From contig JAXHVO010000125.1 in the NCBI GenBank assembly GCA_034189135.1, forward strand, positions 29,371-93,370: DNA of 64,000 nucleotides, written 5' to 3'. The DNA is from Thermodesulfobacteriota bacterium. Lineage in GTDB: Bacteria > Desulfobacterota > Desulfobacteria > Desulfobacterales > JAUWMJ01. This document shows positions 6,800 through 62,489 of this stretch, piece after piece. Within the stretch, counting starts at the first letter, position 1; every line of letters begins with the position of its first letter. Under the pieces are notes generated by a model, which had not been told where the DNA came from, did not search any database, and worked only from the letters and a program-made list of their open reading frames with translations. The position numbers were made by a program, and so were the translations under genes.

Positions 6800-6804
6800 C
6801 AGAC

Positions 6805-6900
6805 GTTCACAGGCATCGCAGCTGCACGCGATCAGGGCGACCAGCATAGCATAAGTATAGCTGGTCGCCCTGATCGTGCACATCTGCGGCAACTGTGAAC
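6805..6900. repeat. 96-nt imperfect palindrome (17-bp perfect core stem GATCAGGGCGACCAGC/GCTGGTCGCCCTGATC plus extended imperfect arms)
   Basis: The left arm gttcacaggcatcgcagctgcacgcgatcagggcgaccagc is the near reverse complement of the right arm gctggtcgccctgatcgtgcacatctgcggcaactgtgaac. No T-run follows. Confidence 0.8.
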
Positions 6901-6978
6901 GCCTACATAACGAAGATTGTGTGACCTTTTTATTCCGAATGTGCGTGAACGGGTACTATAATTTTAAGAGATACTATT

Positions 6979-7788: not shown

Positions 7789-7832
7789 CAAACGGGGAAG
7801 TTTTGGCTACCGAGTAATTATTAAACTTATTA

Positions 7833-8001
7833 GTAGCTACACATATAGTCAGGCTGAAGCTGTTTAGCCTGAAGTCTGAGGGGTTCAGAAAAAAACGCTT
7901 GCCGTACTTTGGCAAAATGTAATTCTTGCATCAAACATGGCTTTAAAATGCGTTTTTTCCTAACAGTCTTCAGTCTTCAACCTAAATACCTGAGCAGTTA
8001 C
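7833..8001 (+). mobile_element. MITE-like repeat, family A, copy 1
   Basis: It is homologous in reverse-complement orientation to 30384..30552 (shared tagtcaggctgaagctgtttag...cctaacagtcttcagtcttca). The ends are gtagctac and gcagttac. Confidence 0.7.
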
Positions 8002-12618: not shown

Positions 12619-12630
12619 GATTGTCAGCGG

Positions 12631-12867
12631 TTCATCCGGGGAATAGGCTTTCGCCCGTTGCGATTTTTAACAATTTTATCTGAGAACCAACGTACGGCAG
12701 CTATCTCGCTGAGATTAAATTTGAACCAGCCCCAGCAGACAGAATTCCACAGCAACGATGATCGTCTCTGCCTGTATAGACTTAACTCAAATGATAGAGG
12801 GCGGCTGCGGTGGTTTGAATTTATTTGTTAAAGATCGCAACGGGCGAAAGCCTATTCCCCGGATGAA
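12631..12867 (+). repeat. 237-nt structured palindromic element, family D, copy 1 (43-bp closing stem, conserved core)
   Basis: 12631-12673 is the reverse complement of 12825-12867 with 1 mismatch in 43. The element is homologous over its full length to 36951..37187. Confidence 0.85.
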
Positions 12868-12885
12868 AGAAAATTAATAAACTCC

Positions 12886-13605
12886 TCAATCCCTCAAATA
12901 TTTATTTCTGTCCGCCATAAAATCCCTGTAGATCCTGTAATGTTCCGTCTTCTCATAATCGATTGACTTTACAGGTATTTTATCGAAGCTGTAAATGGTC
13001 GCCTCCGGGCATGCCATCAGAATAGGTGAATGAGTTGCAATGACAAACTGGGCATGTCCTGCCTCGCTGTTATCCTTGAGTACCTGAAGCAATTCAAGCT
13101 GGCTCCTTGGTGAAAGTGCTGTTTCCGGTTCATCCAGAAAATATAGCCCCCTGAACCTGTATCTTGCTTTGAAAAACGACATGAGGGATTGCCCATGGGA
13201 CTGTGTCATCAGTGATTTCCCACCAAAGTATTCCAAAATTCCCGGGTCGGAAGCCGCCCATTCATCCAGGCACTGGGCAAAGTTTTTAGATATTTCTGAA
13301 TCAAAATAAGATCCGGGCACTGTACCGTCACGCCAGCTGACTGAAATGAATTTAAAAAGCATTCCTTCATATGGATTCGACTCAAACCGGGTCCTCTCTA
13401 TGCCTTCCCATATGTGAATACGGCATTTTTGTGCCAGCGCCTGTAAAAGGCTTGATTTTCCGGTACCATTTTCCCCGGTAAAAAACGTGACAGGTGTGAT
13501 AAAATCCAGTTGACATTCTTGCTGAAATATATCCAGGTTAAAGGGATAGTATTCACGGGTCGGACATTTCTCCACAGACAGTGCAATGCTTTTAAGATGT
13601 ATCAT
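12886..13605 (-). CDS. AAA/ABC-fold ATPase (COG3910-like predicted ATPase)
   Basis: Walker A (GENGTGKSS), Q-loop/signature region (SHGQS) and Walker B (LYFLDEPETALS) followed by THSP. Confidence 0.7.
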   Translation of the reverse strand: MIHLKSIALSVEKCPTREYYPFNLDIFQQECQLDFITPVTFFTGENGTGKSSLLQALAQKCRIHIWEGIERTRFESNPYEGMLFKFISVSWRDGTVPGSYFDSEISKNFAQCLDEWAASDPGILEYFGGKSLMTQSHGQSLMSFFKARYRFRGLYFLDEPETALSPRSQLELLQVLKDNSEAGHAQFVIATHSPILMACPEATIYSFDKIPVKSIDYEKTEHYRIYRDFMADRNKYLRD

Positions 13606-27767: not shown

Positions 27768-28649
27768 TTATGGGGTCATGTTATCATCTTTTTCAAAATT
27801 GAAAAGTATATCATTTTCCAAATAAAGCTGTTCCAGTTTTTCCTGATGTTGTTTCAGCTTATCTCCTCTTTTTTTGGCAAGTGCATGTACAATATAATTT
27901 ATAAGAAATGTCAAAGATGTAAGATCTCCTAAAAATGGTATTTGACTGGTAGATGCTATAAGGCTGTGGTTGCAAAACTGCATTAAAGGGCATGATCTGC
28001 TGTCAGTTAAAAGTATCAGCTTATACCCCAGCCTTCGTACAATTTTACCGGTTTTAATAAGCTCGTTAGGATATCTTGAGGTTGCAATAGTTACAACTAC
28101 AGCTTTAGGATGTGCAATTGAAAGCCAGTCAAGTGATGTCCTGTCACTCCCCTTAAGAATATTTATATTATTCCTGATTTTTGTCATTGTCCATCCCATA
28201 TAATAAGCAGGGGCATATGACAGCCGTGAGCCAATAATATAAACAGCACCGGAACTGTCAAGCAAAGAGACAATTTTTTCAAGTTCATCCATATCAATGT
28301 TGCACAGGCTTTCAAGGTTGTTGATTTCCCGCATTATAGATTTTTTAAAATCCCTGGGTCCTTTATATCCATCCAATTCTGAAAGCTTACTTCTTTCAGT
28401 CAGGGTCAGCTCTGTGTCAATATGACTTTTTAAACCTTTGAGAAACTGGCTGTAACTTTTATACCCAATTTTGCGAACAAACCTTACTACAGTTGCTTCG
28501 CTGGCATTGACCTGTTTTCCAAGTTTTCTTGTGGTCATAAATACAGCATCCCCGGGATTTGCAAGAATAAACTTCGCAAGCTGTTTTCCCTTGGATGTAA
28601 GTATTGCTTCTCTTATTTTATGCTTTAAGCTTTTTGCTGATTTGTTCAT
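27768..28649 (-). CDS. MurR/RpiR family transcriptional regulator (HTH_6 + SIS), copy 1
   Basis: HTH (ASEATVVRFVRKIGY) and SIS (YIIGSRLSY...). It is clearly paralogous to 33985..34875. Confidence 0.85.
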   Translation of the reverse strand: MNKSAKSLKHKIREAILTSKGKQLAKFILANPGDAVFMTTRKLGKQVNASEATVVRFVRKIGYKSYSQFLKGLKSHIDTELTLTERSKLSELDGYKGPRDFKKSIMREINNLESLCNIDMDELEKIVSLLDSSGAVYIIGSRLSYAPAYYMGWTMTKIRNNINILKGSDRTSLDWLSIAHPKAVVVTIATSRYPNELIKTGKIVRRLGYKLILLTDSRSCPLMQFCNHSLIASTSQIPFLGDLTSLTFLINYIVHALAKKRGDKLKQHQEKLEQLYLENDILFNFEKDDNMTP

Positions 28650-30383: not shown

Positions 30384-30552
30384 GTAACTACTCAGGTGGA
30401 TAGGCTGAAGACTGAAGACTGTTAGGAAAAAGCGTATTTTGAAGCCATGTTTGGTTCAACAATCACATTCCGTCTAAATAAGACAATCGTGTTCTTCTGA
30501 CCCCTTCAGCCTTCAGTCTAAACAGCTTTAGCCTGACTACGTTAGTAGTTAC
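30384..30552 (-). mobile_element. MITE-like repeat, family A, copy 2
   Basis: 9-bp perfect terminal inverted repeat gtaactact/agtagttac. The flanks AAATAAAG and AAATAAGG look like a target-site duplication. It is the reverse complement of copy 1. Confidence 0.75.
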
Positions 30553-30792
30553 AAATAAGGTTCGTTTAAATCAGATAAAATGTAATACTAACATGCAATA
30601 TTAATGTTTTAGAAGTCAATAGATATCTTTTTTCTATTAATTTTATATTTATTGATAGGTTTTGTTACATTTTTCTTGACACGTAATAAAATAGATGCCA
30701 TTTCGATAAATAATAGCAGTTATAATTAACGCTTCAGACCTCGTTTAGTAGTTAAGTTGCCGAGGTCTAAAATCAAAGCAAAGGAGAAAATT

Positions 30793-32244
30793 ATGGAATT
30801 AAAAGGTTTGCAGGGTGGACAATACCGCCCTCTTTCTGAAGAACAGGTAAAAACAATACATAATGCATCTCTGACTATTCTGGAAAAAACAGGAATAAGC
30901 TACGAGGAAGGTCTTGGCAGCACTGCTGAAATGCTTGAAAAAAATGGTGCTTTACTAGACAGAGATAAAAGAAAAATCAAATTTTCAAAAGATCTACTCA
31001 TGGATCAGGCGGCAAAGGCTCCTGAGCAGGTTATTCTCTATGGGCAGGATAGCAAAAATGATCTTAATCTTTCTGAAGATCGTGTTTACCTGGGAACCGG
31101 GGGAGCCGCCATCAAAATAATTGATCCTGAAACTGATGAAGTAAGATCCACGACTCTGGCAGACCTTTATAATGTTTCAAGGCTTGTGGGTCAGTTGGAT
31201 AATATTCATTTTCTGGTAAGACCCTGTATTCCAACTGATATACCTGAAAATGCCTACGACATAAACATGTATTACGCATGCCTTAAGGCAACAACCAAGC
31301 ATGTTATGTCAGGAGTTAATAATGTAGAAGGTTTCCATAAAGTGCTTGATCTTGCTTCAATGATTGCAGGCGGAAAGGACAAATTCAAAAAAAGACCTTT
31401 TATTTCGATAATAACTTCTTTTGCAATAAGTCCCTTAAAACTCTGTACCCAGTCCACGCATATAATGCAGGAAGCCAACCGTCATAATATTCCTGTTGCC
31501 TTGTCCTGCGCTCCCATGGCAGGCTCCACATCTCCTCTTACCATGGCGGGAACACTTGCTCAGATCCATGCTGAACAGCTTGTTGGAATAACTATCTGCC
31601 AGCTTACAAATCCCGGAGCACCGATTCTTTATGGGGGAATTCCAGGCATGGCAAATCTTAAAACCATGGGATATTTAGGCGGAGCTGTTGAATGCGGCAT
31701 GATGAATGCTGCAATCCATCAGCTTTCACGCTTTGTCAAAGTTCCAAATTATAATTCATCAGGACTTACCGATTCCAAGGTTCCGGATGCTCAGGCCGGA
31801 TGGGAAAAAGCATTAACAGCTGCTCTTGCCTCCATGGGTGGCTCCAATTATATTCATCACAGTGCAGGAATGCTTGAATCAATGCTTACTATTGCGCATG
31901 AGCAGTTTGTGATTGATGATGAAATCATTGGAAACTGCTGCAAGATTTTAAAGGGAATTGATGTTGACCCTGAACATCTTGCAATAGAAGTTATAGAATC
32001 CGTCGGTCCCGGTGGAAATTTCATGGTATCACCCCATACAATGACCCATATGAGAACAGAATATTTTAATGGTATTGGAGTCACAGATAATAAAAGTCGT
32101 GCCAAATGGGAAAAGGAAGGTTCTCTTGATGCCAGGGCAAGGGCAAAAAAAATTGCAAAAGAACTTCTTGAAAAAAGTGAAACTTCATATATTCCGGATG
32201 AAATTGATAAAGCAATCAGGGAAAAATATGAAATATTACTATAA
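30793..32244 (+). CDS. MttB-superfamily methyltransferase, non-pyrrolysine type (quaternary amine such as glycine betaine : corrinoid methyltransferase)
   Basis: The N-terminus LSEEQVKTIHNASLTILEKTGI is typical of the MttB family. There is no in-frame TAG. ATG 30793 lies 7 nt after AAGGAG, and the ORF opens with TTG at 30757. Confidence 0.8.
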   Translation: MELKGLQGGQYRPLSEEQVKTIHNASLTILEKTGISYEEGLGSTAEMLEKNGALLDRDKRKIKFSKDLLMDQAAKAPEQVILYGQDSKNDLNLSEDRVYLGTGGAAIKIIDPETDEVRSTTLADLYNVSRLVGQLDNIHFLVRPCIPTDIPENAYDINMYYACLKATTKHVMSGVNNVEGFHKVLDLASMIAGGKDKFKKRPFISIITSFAISPLKLCTQSTHIMQEANRHNIPVALSCAPMAGSTSPLTMAGTLAQIHAEQLVGITICQLTNPGAPILYGGIPGMANLKTMGYLGGAVECGMMNAAIHQLSRFVKVPNYNSSGLTDSKVPDAQAGWEKALTAALASMGGSNYIHHSAGMLESMLTIAHEQFVIDDEIIGNCCKILKGIDVDPEHLAIEVIESVGPGGNFMVSPHTMTHMRTEYFNGIGVTDNKSRAKWEKEGSLDARARAKKIAKELLEKSETSYIPDEIDKAIREKYEILL

Positions 32245-33723: not shown

Positions 33724-33767
33724 ACGGGTGGTTTGATGAAGACCCTTCGAATGCTTCTAAAAGGCTA

Positions 33768-33880
33768 TGAACGTCGAACATCGAACATCCAACGTCGAAT
33801 TCTGAATAAGGTATTCTGACTATTTATAAGCTGGCGGAGCGAAGCGATTTCATTCATTAGATTTTCAACGTTCGCTGTTC
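33768..33880. repeat. Family C repeat (tandem GAACATCGAACG-type units plus GAGCGAAGCG core), copy at the methyltransferase module boundary
   Basis: tgaacgtcgaacatcgaacatccaacgtcgaat ... ggcggagcgaagcgat ... caacgttcgctgttc. Confidence 0.65.
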
Positions 33881-33984: not shown

Positions 33985-34875
33985 CTACCTTTTTCCGGGG
34001 ATTTCGGTTTCTAAGTTGAAAAGAACATCATTTTCCCAATAGGCCTGTTCAAGCTTTTCCTGATGCCCAATAAGTGCTTCCCCACGCTGGCTGGCCAATT
34101 CCTGAATGAGATAATTAGTCAGGCATGAGATGGTCGTCGGACTGCCGATGTAAGGAATATGTCGCGAAGGAGCAATCAATGCGGTGTTGGCAAACTGAAT
34201 AAGCGGGCAGGTGGAGCTGTCTGTGATGACCAGCAGCTTTTGTTCCAATCGGCGTGCGAGCTTGCCGATGCGTATTAACTCGTTAGGATACCGTGTAGTG
34301 GCAATAATGACCGCCAGGCTGTCTTCAGGCGCAATGGTCAGCCAGTCTATGGTGGTGCGATCACTTCCTTTTAATATATGAATATTCTGACGGACTTTAG
34401 TCAGGGACCATCCCATATAATACGAAAGAGTGTAGGAAAGGCGTGATCCAATCACATAAATATGGCTTGATTTAAGCAGCAGGTCCACCGCTTCGCCAAT
34501 CAGCGTCATATCTATGGTTTCAAACAATTGCCTCAGGTTGTCCATCTCTTCAGATACTACCCGACGAAAGCGTTCGGAACCCGGGCTTTTCATGTCGGTA
34601 AAGTTCAAACGTTCCAGCATCGTCAGCTCGGTATCAACAAAATCCCTTAAAATTTGCTGAAACTCGCCATACCCGTAAAATCCGAGTTGGTTTACAAAAC
34701 GAACCACTGTTGCTTCGCTGACGTTGCATGCTTCGGACAGCTCTTTTGTAGTCATAAATACAGCTTTACGGGCGTTTTCAGTAATATAATCTCCGAGAAT
34801 ACGTGCTTTGGGCGTTAATTCTGAGTAGTAATCATAAATTTTTTGAATCAGCGGATGTAGTTGTGTACCTGCCAT
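33985..34875 (-). CDS. MurR/RpiR family transcriptional regulator (HTH_6 + SIS), copy 2
   Basis: VSEATVVRFVNQLGF and YVIGSRLSY...ILKGSDRT...RYPNELI...HQEKLEQ are shared with copy 1. It is divergent from soxB. Confidence 0.85.
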   Translation of the reverse strand: MAGTQLHPLIQKIYDYYSELTPKARILGDYITENARKAVFMTTKELSEACNVSEATVVRFVNQLGFYGYGEFQQILRDFVDTELTMLERLNFTDMKSPGSERFRRVVSEEMDNLRQLFETIDMTLIGEAVDLLLKSSHIYVIGSRLSYTLSYYMGWSLTKVRQNIHILKGSDRTTIDWLTIAPEDSLAVIIATTRYPNELIRIGKLARRLEQKLLVITDSSTCPLIQFANTALIAPSRHIPYIGSPTTISCLTNYLIQELASQRGEALIGHQEKLEQAYWENDVLFNLETEIPGKR

Positions 34876-36658: not shown

Positions 36659-36916
36659 ATGGCATTAACCATCACATGCCCGATCTGTGGTAAACGCAAT
36701 GGATATGAATTTCGCTTCGGTGGCGAAGACAAAGGGCCACGACCTGATGAAGCTGGAATGACGCCGGAGACCTGGTGCGACTATACCCATATGAATAACT
36801 GCATCGCCGGCATTCAAAAAGAATGGTGGTATCACCGGGACGGGTGCAGCTCCTGGTTTACCATCTATCGGGACACACGCATTAATTTGGAAGTATCTTC
36901 ACCCGATTTGGATTAA
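36659..36916 (+). CDS. soxD: Sarcosine oxidase delta subunit-like protein
   Basis: 85 aa with ITCPICGKRNGYEFRFGGE...WWYHRDGC..WF, the SoxD zinc-binding pattern. Confidence 0.8.
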   Translation: MALTITCPICGKRNGYEFRFGGEDKGPRPDEAGMTPETWCDYTHMNNCIAGIQKEWWYHRDGCSSWFTIYRDTRINLEVSSPDLD

Positions 36917-36950
36917 TGAGGGGTCAGGGAGTTTTTCAATCTCTACTCAG

Positions 36951-37187
36951 TTCGTCCGGGGAAGCGCCTATTTGCCCGTATCAGCCTTAACAATAATTTT
37001 GAGAAACTGGCGTTCGGCAGATATCTTGCTGAAATTCGATTCGAACCAGCCCCAAGGGCCAGAACCCCACGGCAGCGTTTATCGTCTCTGCCTGTATGGA
37101 TTTAACTGAAAAGATAGGGGGCGTGTACATAGTGCTGGACTTTTTTGTTAAGGCTGATACAGGCAAATAGGCGCTTCCCCGGACGAA
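36951..37187 (+). repeat. 237-nt structured palindromic element, family D, copy 2 (inside the sox operon)
   Basis: 36951-36993 is the reverse complement of 37145-37187 with 1 mismatch in 43. It has the same length, orientation and core blocks as 12631..12867. Confidence 0.85.
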
Positions 37188-37284
37188 CCACTAACAATCA
37201 TTAAAGATCAAACGGTTTGCAAAAAAGCCCATTGACAAGAAACTCCCCGATCCCCCGATTAATAAAACATTGGAGTGGTCAATA

Positions 37285-53015: not shown

Positions 53016-53046
53016 GAATTGCCAATTTGAAGACCAAAAGGCCTTT

Positions 53047-53190
<144 letters not shown>

Positions 53191-53466
53191 TTTTTTATTT
53201 TACTTCATGGTTCAGTGTTTAATAGAAAATATTGCATTGAGATTTACGCCAGTTCAGGGCCCCTGAAATTGCTACGACAAAGACTTAACATGGAGCGTAA
53301 ATAATTACAAGTTAGAGATGTTATCCTATTGATTTCATTATAGCAAAATATTTATTTGAATAGTATAGTTTTCGTTTGACATAGACTATATTTCAGTTCA
53401 ATAGATATATAAATATTAAAATCAAACTGCCTCTAATAAGCATGTCAGAGAGGCAAAAACCTGGCT

Positions 53467-62152: not shown

Positions 62153-62489
62153 TGAACGTCGAACATCGAACGTTGAACATCGAATACTGAAATCGTTTCG
62201 CTCCGCCAATTTATACCGTTTCTCATAAATATATTCCGTTTTAAACGATGAAAAACTCGTATATAAGAAATCGTAAAGAAAGAACTAACTGTCTTTATAA
62301 TAATTAATTTCGGTATTACAACTACTTCAAATAATAAACAATATTTCACTTAAGTTCTTTCTTAACGATTTCTAATACACTCAGACAGTTTCCTCATTTA
62401 AAACGGAACATATTTATGAGAATTACTATATACATTGGCAGAATACCTTATTCAAAATTCGATGTTGGGCGTTCGATGTTGAATGTTCA
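62153..62489. repeat. About 340-nt nested palindromic element (family C outer arms, long near-perfect inner inverted repeats)
   Basis: Outer arms tgaacgtcgaacatcgaacgttgaacatcgaat / attcgatgttgggcgttcgatgttgaatgttca. Inner inverted repeats 62220-62245 / 62397-62422 match at 25 of 26, and 62266-62288 / 62350-62373 also pair. Confidence 0.75.

Follow-up and report, generated by a model that had tools for sequence, protein, structure and literature searches.

A dispersed long-hairpin miniature transposable element of Thermodesulfobacteriota whose matching stem changes probably reflect DNA copying between the arms

In bacteria, MITEs (miniature transposable elements with inverted repeats) are shorter than 500 bp, carry no gene, end in terminal inverted repeats and are flanked by a duplication of the target (PMC10969869, PMC3184786). 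They also favour AT-rich intergenic targets, occur in many dispersed or truncated copies, give a stable predicted stem-loop transcript and have a related insertion sequence (IS). These features are shared by a repeat present in a stretch of 64,000 nt (the window), positions 29,371-93,370 of contig JAXHVO010000125.1 (GCA_034189135.1) from a Thermodesulfobacteriota bacterium. A first-pass annotation, made from the letters of the window alone, had described the repeat as two copies of 237 nt closed by a 43-bp stem, and had taken the matching changes on the two sides of the stem as a sign of selection on base pairing. The analysis reported here indicates that the 237-nt repeats are the hairpin cores of MITEs, and that their arms most likely stay complementary through copying of DNA from one arm to the other. 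Compared with MITEs generally, the pairing here lies mostly in a long sub-terminal inverted repeat, separate from a 19-bp terminal repeat, and the enclosed 150-bp core is better conserved than the arms and common to MITEs with unrelated termini.

By description, the element most resembles long-hairpin MITEs such as Chunjie. According to summaries of Chen et al. 2008, Chunjie of Geobacter uraniireducens Rf4 measures 178-235 bp and folds with about -98 to -130 kcal/mol (PMC3184786, PMC10969869). The same summaries give a deltaproteobacterial host, a very stable fold, one copy inside an operon and many partial copies, as found here, together with 21-bp terminal repeats and 9-bp direct repeats against 19 bp and 8 bp in the present element. 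The Correia element (CREE) of Neisseria is likewise a MITE that lies in the intergenic regions of operons and is co-transcribed as a hairpin, and inversion of its interior, also seen here, has been reported (PMC10969869). Correia elements differ in their length of 100-155 bp, their 26-bp terminal repeats, their TA duplication and their integration host factor (IHF) site and promoters, whereas no promoter signal was found in the present element, and no sequence similarity between the two is expected. The Correia hairpin in transcripts is cut by RNase III. The ERIC sequences, with which the first-pass annotation had compared the repeat, are imperfect palindromic intergenic repeats that are transcribed with their neighbours and are classed as MITEs (PMC3184786). 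The comparison stands for the general kind, a dispersed palindromic repeat with a longer stem, and does not extend to sequence: ERIC is about 127 bp long with TA flanks, the stem here is far longer and nearly perfect, the host differs, and blastn returned no match in 5,426 complete Escherichia coli genomes, which carry ERIC copies.

For bcr1, a dispersed and MITE-like repeat found in the Bacillus cereus group (about 155 bp, target duplication of 5 bp), compensatory changes of base pairs have also been described and were interpreted as conservation at the RNA level (PMC3184786). In the present element the mismatch spectrum, the symmetric insertions and deletions (indels) and the inversions point instead to copying at the DNA level. 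The REP and REPIN sequences mobilised by RAYT are hairpins of 20-40 nt without terminal repeats or duplication, in contrast to the 19-bp repeats and 8-bp duplication seen here. Large inverted repeats, such as those of chloroplasts, and the short bacterial inverted repeats (PMC5941160) and quasipalindromes (PMC7202029) keep their arms nearly identical while lineages diverge. It is established that recombination and template switching make inverted repeats evolve in concert (PMC5941160, PMC7202029), and the present element shares with them substitutions and indels copied from arm to arm and flip-flop inversion of the spacer. It differs in its intermediate scale, with arms of about 40 bp and a 150-bp spacer, and in being carried on a mobile element.

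Both copies of the 237-nt repeat stand on the same strand, at 12631-12867 (copy 1) and 36951-37187 (copy 2), where the first-pass annotation had placed them, and the 43-nt arms of each are reverse-complementary apart from exactly one mismatch, again as described. A comparison of the two left arms shows 16 differences in 43 positions, in agreement with the earlier count of well over ten. The claim that every one of these differences is matched on the opposite arm was slightly overstated: 14 of the 16 are matched (5 transitions and 9 transversions), and the remaining two are the single mismatch of copy 1 and the single mismatch of copy 2. The copies are 63% identical in the arms and 70% in the 151-nt interior, and their predicted folding energies are -114 and -117 kcal/mol, with z-scores of -12.7 and -11.1 against dinucleotide shuffles. 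Conserved blocks noted earlier in the interior are present in both copies and are kept in 58 non-redundant homologues from other genomes. Alignment of the homologues also reveals conserved sequence beyond the stem, namely an outer inverted repeat, TGAGGGGTCGGGGAGTTTTT. The element has terminal inverted repeats, GAGGGGTCGGGGAGTTTTT, and an AT-rich target duplication of 8 bp; these outer repeats, the duplication GATTAAT of copy 2 and the missing left end of copy 1 had been overlooked. The parts of the two copies are as follows.

Copy 2:
36911-36917, no strand, left target-site duplication GATTAAT, the same heptamer as at 37257-37263
36914-36916, stop codon TAA of soxD inside the left GATTAAT, read from the sequence
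36918-36936, plus strand, left terminal inverted repeat (GAGGGGTCAGGGAGTTTTT), one mismatch to the family 19-mer
36937-36950, plus strand, short shell spacer, aligning with the short spacers of loci L004 and L005
36951-36993, plus strand, left arm of the 43-bp sub-terminal inverted repeat
36994-37144, plus strand, core of 151 nt, from the alignment of the 58 non-redundant homologues
37015-37020, plus strand, near-invariant core block CGGCAG
37047-37054, plus strand, near-invariant core block CAGCCCCA
37086-37094, plus strand, near-invariant core block CTCTGCCTG
37117-37124, plus strand, near-invariant core block GGGGGCGT
37145-37187, plus strand, right arm, one C·A mismatch to the left arm
37188-37237, plus strand, long shell spacer, from alignment with homologues
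37238-37256, minus strand, right terminal inverted repeat, three mismatches to the 19-mer
37257-37263, no strand, right target-site duplication GATTAAT, read from the sequence

Copy 1:
12619-12630, plus strand, remnant of the long spacer (GATTGTCAGCGG), matching the stem-proximal end of the long spacer of locus L002
12631-12673, plus strand, left arm, from inverted-repeat comparison
12674-12824, plus strand, core of 151 nt, aligned with copy 2 and homologues
12694-12701, plus strand, core block ACGGCAGC, from the homologue alignment
12727-12734, plus strand, core block CAGCCCCA, from the homologue alignment
12766-12774, plus strand, core block CTCTGCCTG, from the homologue alignment
12797-12804, plus strand, core block GAGGGCGG, from the homologue alignment
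12825-12867, plus strand, right arm, one T·G mismatch, 9 bp from the core
12877-12895, minus strand, degenerate right terminal repeat (ATAAACTCCTCAATCCCTC), 15/19 to the consensus and below the scan threshold

Copy 2 is complete, with 339 bp (36918-37256) between the GATTAAT duplicates, which represent 7 of the 8 nt of a target duplication. The counterpart of its short spacer is 13-15 nt long in other family members, and the stem-proximal CCACTAACAATC of its long spacer is the reverse complement of the GATTGTTAGTGG-type motif found 5' of copy 1. A scan of the window with the 19-mer at up to 3 mismatches, for which 0.04 matches per window are expected by chance, found no terminal repeat upstream of copy 1. 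The left terminal repeat of this copy and most of its long spacer are gone, with 12 nt of the spacer left, and from these remains copy 1 is judged to be a truncated fossil of the element. No open reading frame (ORF) of at least 60 aa lies inside 36917-37269 or 12619-12885. A 239-aa AAA-ATPase ORF (12886-13605, minus strand) runs 10 nt into the degenerate terminal repeat of copy 1 (12886-12895), so that the MITE supplies the last codons and the stop of the ORF; the AAA-ATPase gene may have been 3'-truncated by the insertion of copy 1.

The insertion of copy 2 can be compared with an empty site. This copy sits in the very short soxD-soxA junction of a sarcosine-oxidase operon. The element is absent from this junction in all 30 relatives compared, 28 of which have a soxD-soxA gap of at most 50 nt. 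In the closest relative found (locus L241; SoxA 84% and SoxD 92% identical) the junction is uninterrupted and reads TTGGATTAATAA...CATTGGAGTAGTCAATAATG, with the genes 33 nt apart and a single TTGGATTAATAA. A transcript across soxD-soxA should carry a long perfect hairpin, likely a side effect of the insertion and not the cause of the arm matching.

Homologues were gathered by a core-pattern scan, from Desulfobacterales and Thermodesulfobacteriota metagenome-assembled genomes (MAGs), and a second pattern scan together with nhmmer gave 85 copies of the stem-plus-core module in the retrieved loci (L numbers). The module is dispersed through many Desulfobacterota MAGs, with at least 10 copies in single MAGs. 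The terminal 19-mer was found at more than 120 loci in other genomes, often at contig ends, and its hosts include Desulfobacterales, Omnitrophota, Planctomycetota, Nitrospinaceae, bacteria of the candidate phyla radiation (CPR) and some archaeal bins. The elements delimited by paired 19-mers measure about 115-140, 180, 275 and 300-340 bp, and their interiors are unrelated. Of 69 family elements, 42 are flanked by perfect direct repeats of 8 bp (87% A+T), against none of 69 in a shifted control. An autonomous partner also exists, an IS of about 1.15 kb with the same termini and two ORFs (L029:2861-4003; L043:1-1145), the kind of identifiable parent IS that the first-pass annotation had named as evidence against its own reading. 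The OrfB of this IS matches DDE_Tnp_1_6 and, weakly, IS1182/IS5 transposases; its family counts more than 1145 members and, as is expected of an abundant IS, almost all of them come from contigs 1.1-1.5 kb long.

Every MITE-defining feature tested was found: size, lack of a transposase gene, termini, duplication, partner IS, empty site and dispersal. On these sequence characters the element is a MITE. The shared ends and the same AT-rich 8-bp duplication are observed, and mobilisation is presumably by the IS. Deletion derivatives have the same shells (terminal repeats and spacers) with the module partly or wholly gone and with differing breakpoints (L140:5361-5446, L130:3681-3851, L150:1189-1382 and L041:6057-6171), which shows the module to be separable from the shell and the palindrome to be easily deleted. 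For short-read Logan contigs of the same organism (L240, L288, L289 and L290; SRR24907504/5), the ends fall within the terminal repeat or the arms of both window copies; the element breaks k-mer assemblies. No homologues were present among the plasmids or viral contigs searched, and a literature search with the terminal repeat sequence returned unrelated aptamer and primer matches only. The family appears to be undescribed in the sources searched.

The pairing of the arms holds throughout the family. In the 51 copies whose detected arm stays out of the shell, the arms measure 27-47 nt and the two arms of one copy are 95.4% identical, with no indel between them in 46 of the 51 even though arm length varies by up to 20 nt from copy to copy. 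Over the inner 30 stem pairs of the 58 non-redundant copies, 91.9% are Watson-Crick and 1.1% are G·U, and double changes occur at all 30 pairs. Slid registers gave 26-42% Watson-Crick and 8-15% G·U, and column shuffles gave at most 43% Watson-Crick. Stem pairing is conserved far beyond chance, and the earlier argument that independent drift cannot explain complementary arms is accepted for simple independent drift.

Such a pattern could be read, as in the first-pass annotation, as the mark of a structured RNA, in which the element is transcribed, its pairing is selected and the conserved core is a functional RNA domain. This reading draws on the very stable fold, the double changes, the near-invariant core motifs, of which GGCAG/CTGCC and GCCCC/GGGGC could pair as a pseudoknot, the position of copy 2 within an operon, where it is probably transcribed, and the RNA-level interpretation given to the changes in bcr1 of Bacillus (PMC3184786). 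The mismatches between arms argue against it. Unique arm mismatches (n = 80) comprise 18 G·U, 29 A·C and 33 of transversion type (41%), and the difference between 18 G·U and 29 A·C (p = 0.14) gives no strand asymmetry. RNA helices under selection normally tolerate wobble pairs. The indels point in the same direction. An 8-nt tandem duplication (AATAAGCC followed by AATAGCC) is present on both arms of the L176 group and missing from both arms of L002, L004 and L005, and copies 1 and 2 of the window have equally long arms (about 43 bp) with a diverged 8-nt segment at the position of the duplication. Two independent matching insertions of 8 nt are not credible, which argues for copying from arm to arm, and symmetric indels cannot come from selection on RNA. 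Among close copies the compensated changes amount to 77 transitions and 40 transversions, a mix similar to the 165 and 117 in the unpaired core of the same pairs. With 63% identity between the window copies, against 70% for the core, the arms are not hypervariable, as neutral change with homogenisation predicts.

Searches directed at RNA structure gave the same outcome. No Rfam family matched over either copy, at the gathering score or at E up to 10. RNAalifold recovered the closing stem and one invariant 5-bp pairing and nothing else in the core, folds of the core in subgroups were mutually inconsistent, and the top pairs of a mutual-information scan all fell in the closing stem, with no covarying helix in the core. 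The core alone was no more stable than shuffles (mean z = -0.4 and -0.5 for the two strands). Relative to co-directional neighbouring genes the element has the same orientation in 16 cases and the opposite in 10, which is no bias; 12 elements lie in convergent and 6 in divergent gene contexts, and the core flips relative to its shell. With Rfam empty, no covariation or excess folding energy in the core, depleted G·U pairs, symmetric indels and no preferred orientation, a structured RNA maintained by selection on pairing is very unlikely.

The explanation favoured here, DNA copying between the arms of a MITE, would work as follows. The element, having no gene of its own, would be moved in trans by the two-ORF DDE transposase of the IS of about 1.15 kb. 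Its arms would exchange sequence, either by recombination or gene conversion between them or by template switching of replication across the hairpin, so that a substitution or indel in one arm would be erased or copied to the other. Such exchange would produce a concerted evolution that resembles compensatory change, and repeated inversion of the 150-bp core within the asymmetric shell would result from the same exchanges.

Evidence for this flipping comes from the shell, in which the spacers between terminal repeat and stem measure about 14 nt on one side and about 50 nt on the other. Copy 1, L002, L176, L238, L236, L154, L007, L237 and L148 have the long spacer 5' of the core, and copy 2, L004, L099, L221, L192, L232 and L111 have it 3' of the core. 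The cores of L238 and L232 are 93% identical in direct orientation, but the flanks of these two loci match only after reverse complementation (95% and 75%). Both core orientations were found together in one MAG with L176 and L192, of type 1, and likewise with L139 and L153, of type 2; both states are present in each subgroup. The opposite orientations among related copies indicate that the core has been inverted several times. Inversion requires exchange between the arms, hence the arms recombine, and such exchange also homogenises them. The first-pass annotation had named recent gene conversion or replication of a hairpin as explanations that would count against its own reading; arm-to-arm copying or recombination explains the pattern, and the repeated inversion shows that the arms do recombine.

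The inversions could also belong to a programmed switch, in which the arms are invertase sites and the 150-bp core is flipped to alter the expression of neighbouring genes. Both core orientations are indeed found among close relatives and within single genomes, and Correia inversion has been proposed as phase variation (PMC10969869). In one inversion the shell kept a heterozygous arm site that lies 8 bp from the core, which places the crossover within the innermost 7 bp or so, and this part is conserved. However, this is the single informative crossover, with a chance of about 0.18 under random crossover. Promoter-like and terminator-like matches in the core are at chance level, the sigma-54-like GG-N10-GC spacing of some copies is lost in 18 type-2 copies, and the element is not biased in its orientation to genes. 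No gene for a recombinase was identified, although no systematic invertase search in host genomes was made, and the same locus was not seen in both states, the assemblies breaking in the arms. A switch of this kind is very improbable.

The core itself has further regularities. Four motifs, ACGGCAGC, CAGCCCCA, CTCTGCCTG and GGGGGCGT (blocks A to D), are near-invariant and fixed in spacing, and the sequence between them is saturated with changes. They contain complementary motifs in the interleaved order A, B, A', B' (GGCAG, GCCCC, CTGCC, GGGGC), which show no variation across copies and could form a pseudoknot or paired protein sites. In the 8 loci that were retrieved by the terminal repeat alone, all four blocks are likewise kept. 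Core length, measured on 63 copies with intact arms, is 145-163 nt, and the innermost stem motif G[C/T]AAC is conserved. The same stem-plus-core module is found in at least four kinds of shell whose terminal repeats are unrelated, GAGGGGTCGGGGAG, GTATCACTTTAGCGCTTTGAAA, GAGAGCTTTGCATA and TTACTCCGGC, and probably in a further one with the terminal repeat CAGCAATTCTAATTATG. The type 2 shell also makes 8-bp target duplications and deletion derivatives.

These observations have been weighed for a selected DNA hairpin or cruciform, in which pairing is selected at the DNA level and the long stem with its core, single-stranded or extruded, acts as a structure-specific substrate that is required to move the MITE or to let the module spread on its own into other MITEs. 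The presence of the module in at least four unrelated shells, types 1 and 2 of which have 8-bp target duplications, is consistent with it, as are the maintained lengths of stem (about 33-46 bp) and core, the conserved G[C/T]AAC and four core motifs, and the strict Watson-Crick pairing, which fits DNA over RNA. On the other hand, the duplications flank the outer repeats, as in cut-and-paste by a DDE enzyme on double-stranded ends and not in hairpin-specific recombination. Among the module copies found, none is clearly outside a shell, the module has no linked HUH, tyrosine or serine recombinase, and copying between arms suffices to account for the pairing. As the cause of the matching arms, selection for a DNA hairpin is unlikely. 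A related idea is that the stem-plus-core unit of about 225 bp is a functional, separately evolving module and not the junk of one MITE. The fixed core length, the interleaved motifs, the conserved innermost stem motif, the repeated flipping and the at least four unrelated shells argue for it, and it may be given a small but appreciable chance. Such a module could be a recombination or inversion site for an as-yet hypothetical protein, or a pseudoknotted single-stranded DNA or RNA that aids its MITE or spreads between MITEs alone.

Several specific functions were tried for the core and rejected. A sigma-54 promoter was suggested by CGGCAG-N5-TTGCT in copy 2, and the GG-N10-GC spacing is missing in the 18 type-2 copies and in L002, L004 and L018. 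The tRNA-like T-loop (TTCGAACC) of copy 2 is not conserved in other copies. Blocks in an order similar to that of the double pseudoknot of hepatitis delta virus (HDV) were noted, but the spacers are far too long, the helices neither extend nor covary, and Rfam gave no match. For a small ORF, the indels are not multiples of three and there is no conserved start. A helix that would pair the sequence flanking block A on its 5' side with that flanking block D on its 3' side showed covariation by eye in types 1a, 2 and 3, and failed in types 1b and 1c and in the mutual-information scan. Insertion of the module into unrelated palindromes was also rejected, the stems of different shells being homologous (CCGC.GGGG ... 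G[C/T]AAC). Small palindromes, GTCCGCC...GGCGGAC, stand at one core position, just after ACGGCAG, in two unrelated copies (L004:2929-3149 and L202:5426-5612); they repeat a motif of the outer stem and may be a trace of template switching.

Some observations weigh against arm-to-arm copying as a full account. Concerted evolution leaves the near-invariant motifs and the core length unexplained, and it likewise leaves unexplained the presence of one core in MITEs with at least four unrelated termini; for the motifs, blocks B, C and D belonged to the second search pattern, and their invariance in that set is partly by construction, whereas block A was outside it. Arm mismatches concentrate 6-11 bp from the core, with 35 of about 73 events there and only 3 at 14-21 bp in the 49 gap-free copies. 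A conversion edge effect would fit this clustering and may be its cause, or the cluster, with the heterozygous site 8 bp from the core, may mark a point where crossing over is preferred. Within this zone lies the one mismatch of copy 1 (12665/12833). No locus was found in both orientations by look-ups with exact proteins, in which the contigs were identical or ended in the arms; short-read assemblies of the organism break inside the arms. Conversion and inversion are read from the comparison of copies as past events, and selection for a DNA hairpin could act alongside copying, the two being inseparable here.

Other features of the window were also recorded. A second, unrelated long-hairpin repeat of about 340 bp lies at 62153-62489, with partial copies at 33765-33880 and 53044-53191. 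Units of GAACGTCGAACATCGAAC type make up its termini, further inverted repeats are nested inside it (62220-62253/62389-62422 and 62259-62286/62353-62380), and it is probably another foldback MITE family of the same genome. An inverted repeat of 179 nt (7823-8001 / 30384-30562) is 81% complementary with arms 22 kb apart and probably represents paralogous genes in opposite orientation. Three families of direct repeats connect 27791-28569 with 34008-34786 at an identical offset of 6217 nt. The second of these regions falls in an RpiR/SIS regulator gene (33985-34875), which points to a probable paralogous regulator about 6 kb upstream. A G+C-rich inverted repeat at 6801-6904 has 45-nt arms, 80% complementary and 14 nt apart. 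The Rfam family PYLIS_3, the pyrrolysine insertion sequence of mttB, matches at 31765-31867 on the plus strand with 46.6 bits against a gathering score of 38, and the host, of Desulfobacterales type as judged by SoxA similarity, probably encodes a pyrrolysine-containing trimethylamine methyltransferase near its sarcosine oxidase genes.

Perfect compensatory covariation along a long stem usually passes for proof that an RNA is structured. In the present case a mobile DNA palindrome shows it, most likely as a result of copying between the arms, and foldback MITEs can accordingly fool RNA discovery that is based on covariation. Depletion of G·U pairs, symmetric indels and inversion of the spacer are practical means to discriminate between a structured RNA and DNA copying. 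The conserved and flipping core of 150 nt, common to MITEs with different ends, is a puzzle in its own right. Overall, the element belongs to a MITE/IS family that is abundant in Desulfobacterota and in further uncultivated lineages, lies inside operons and interrupts assemblies made from short reads.

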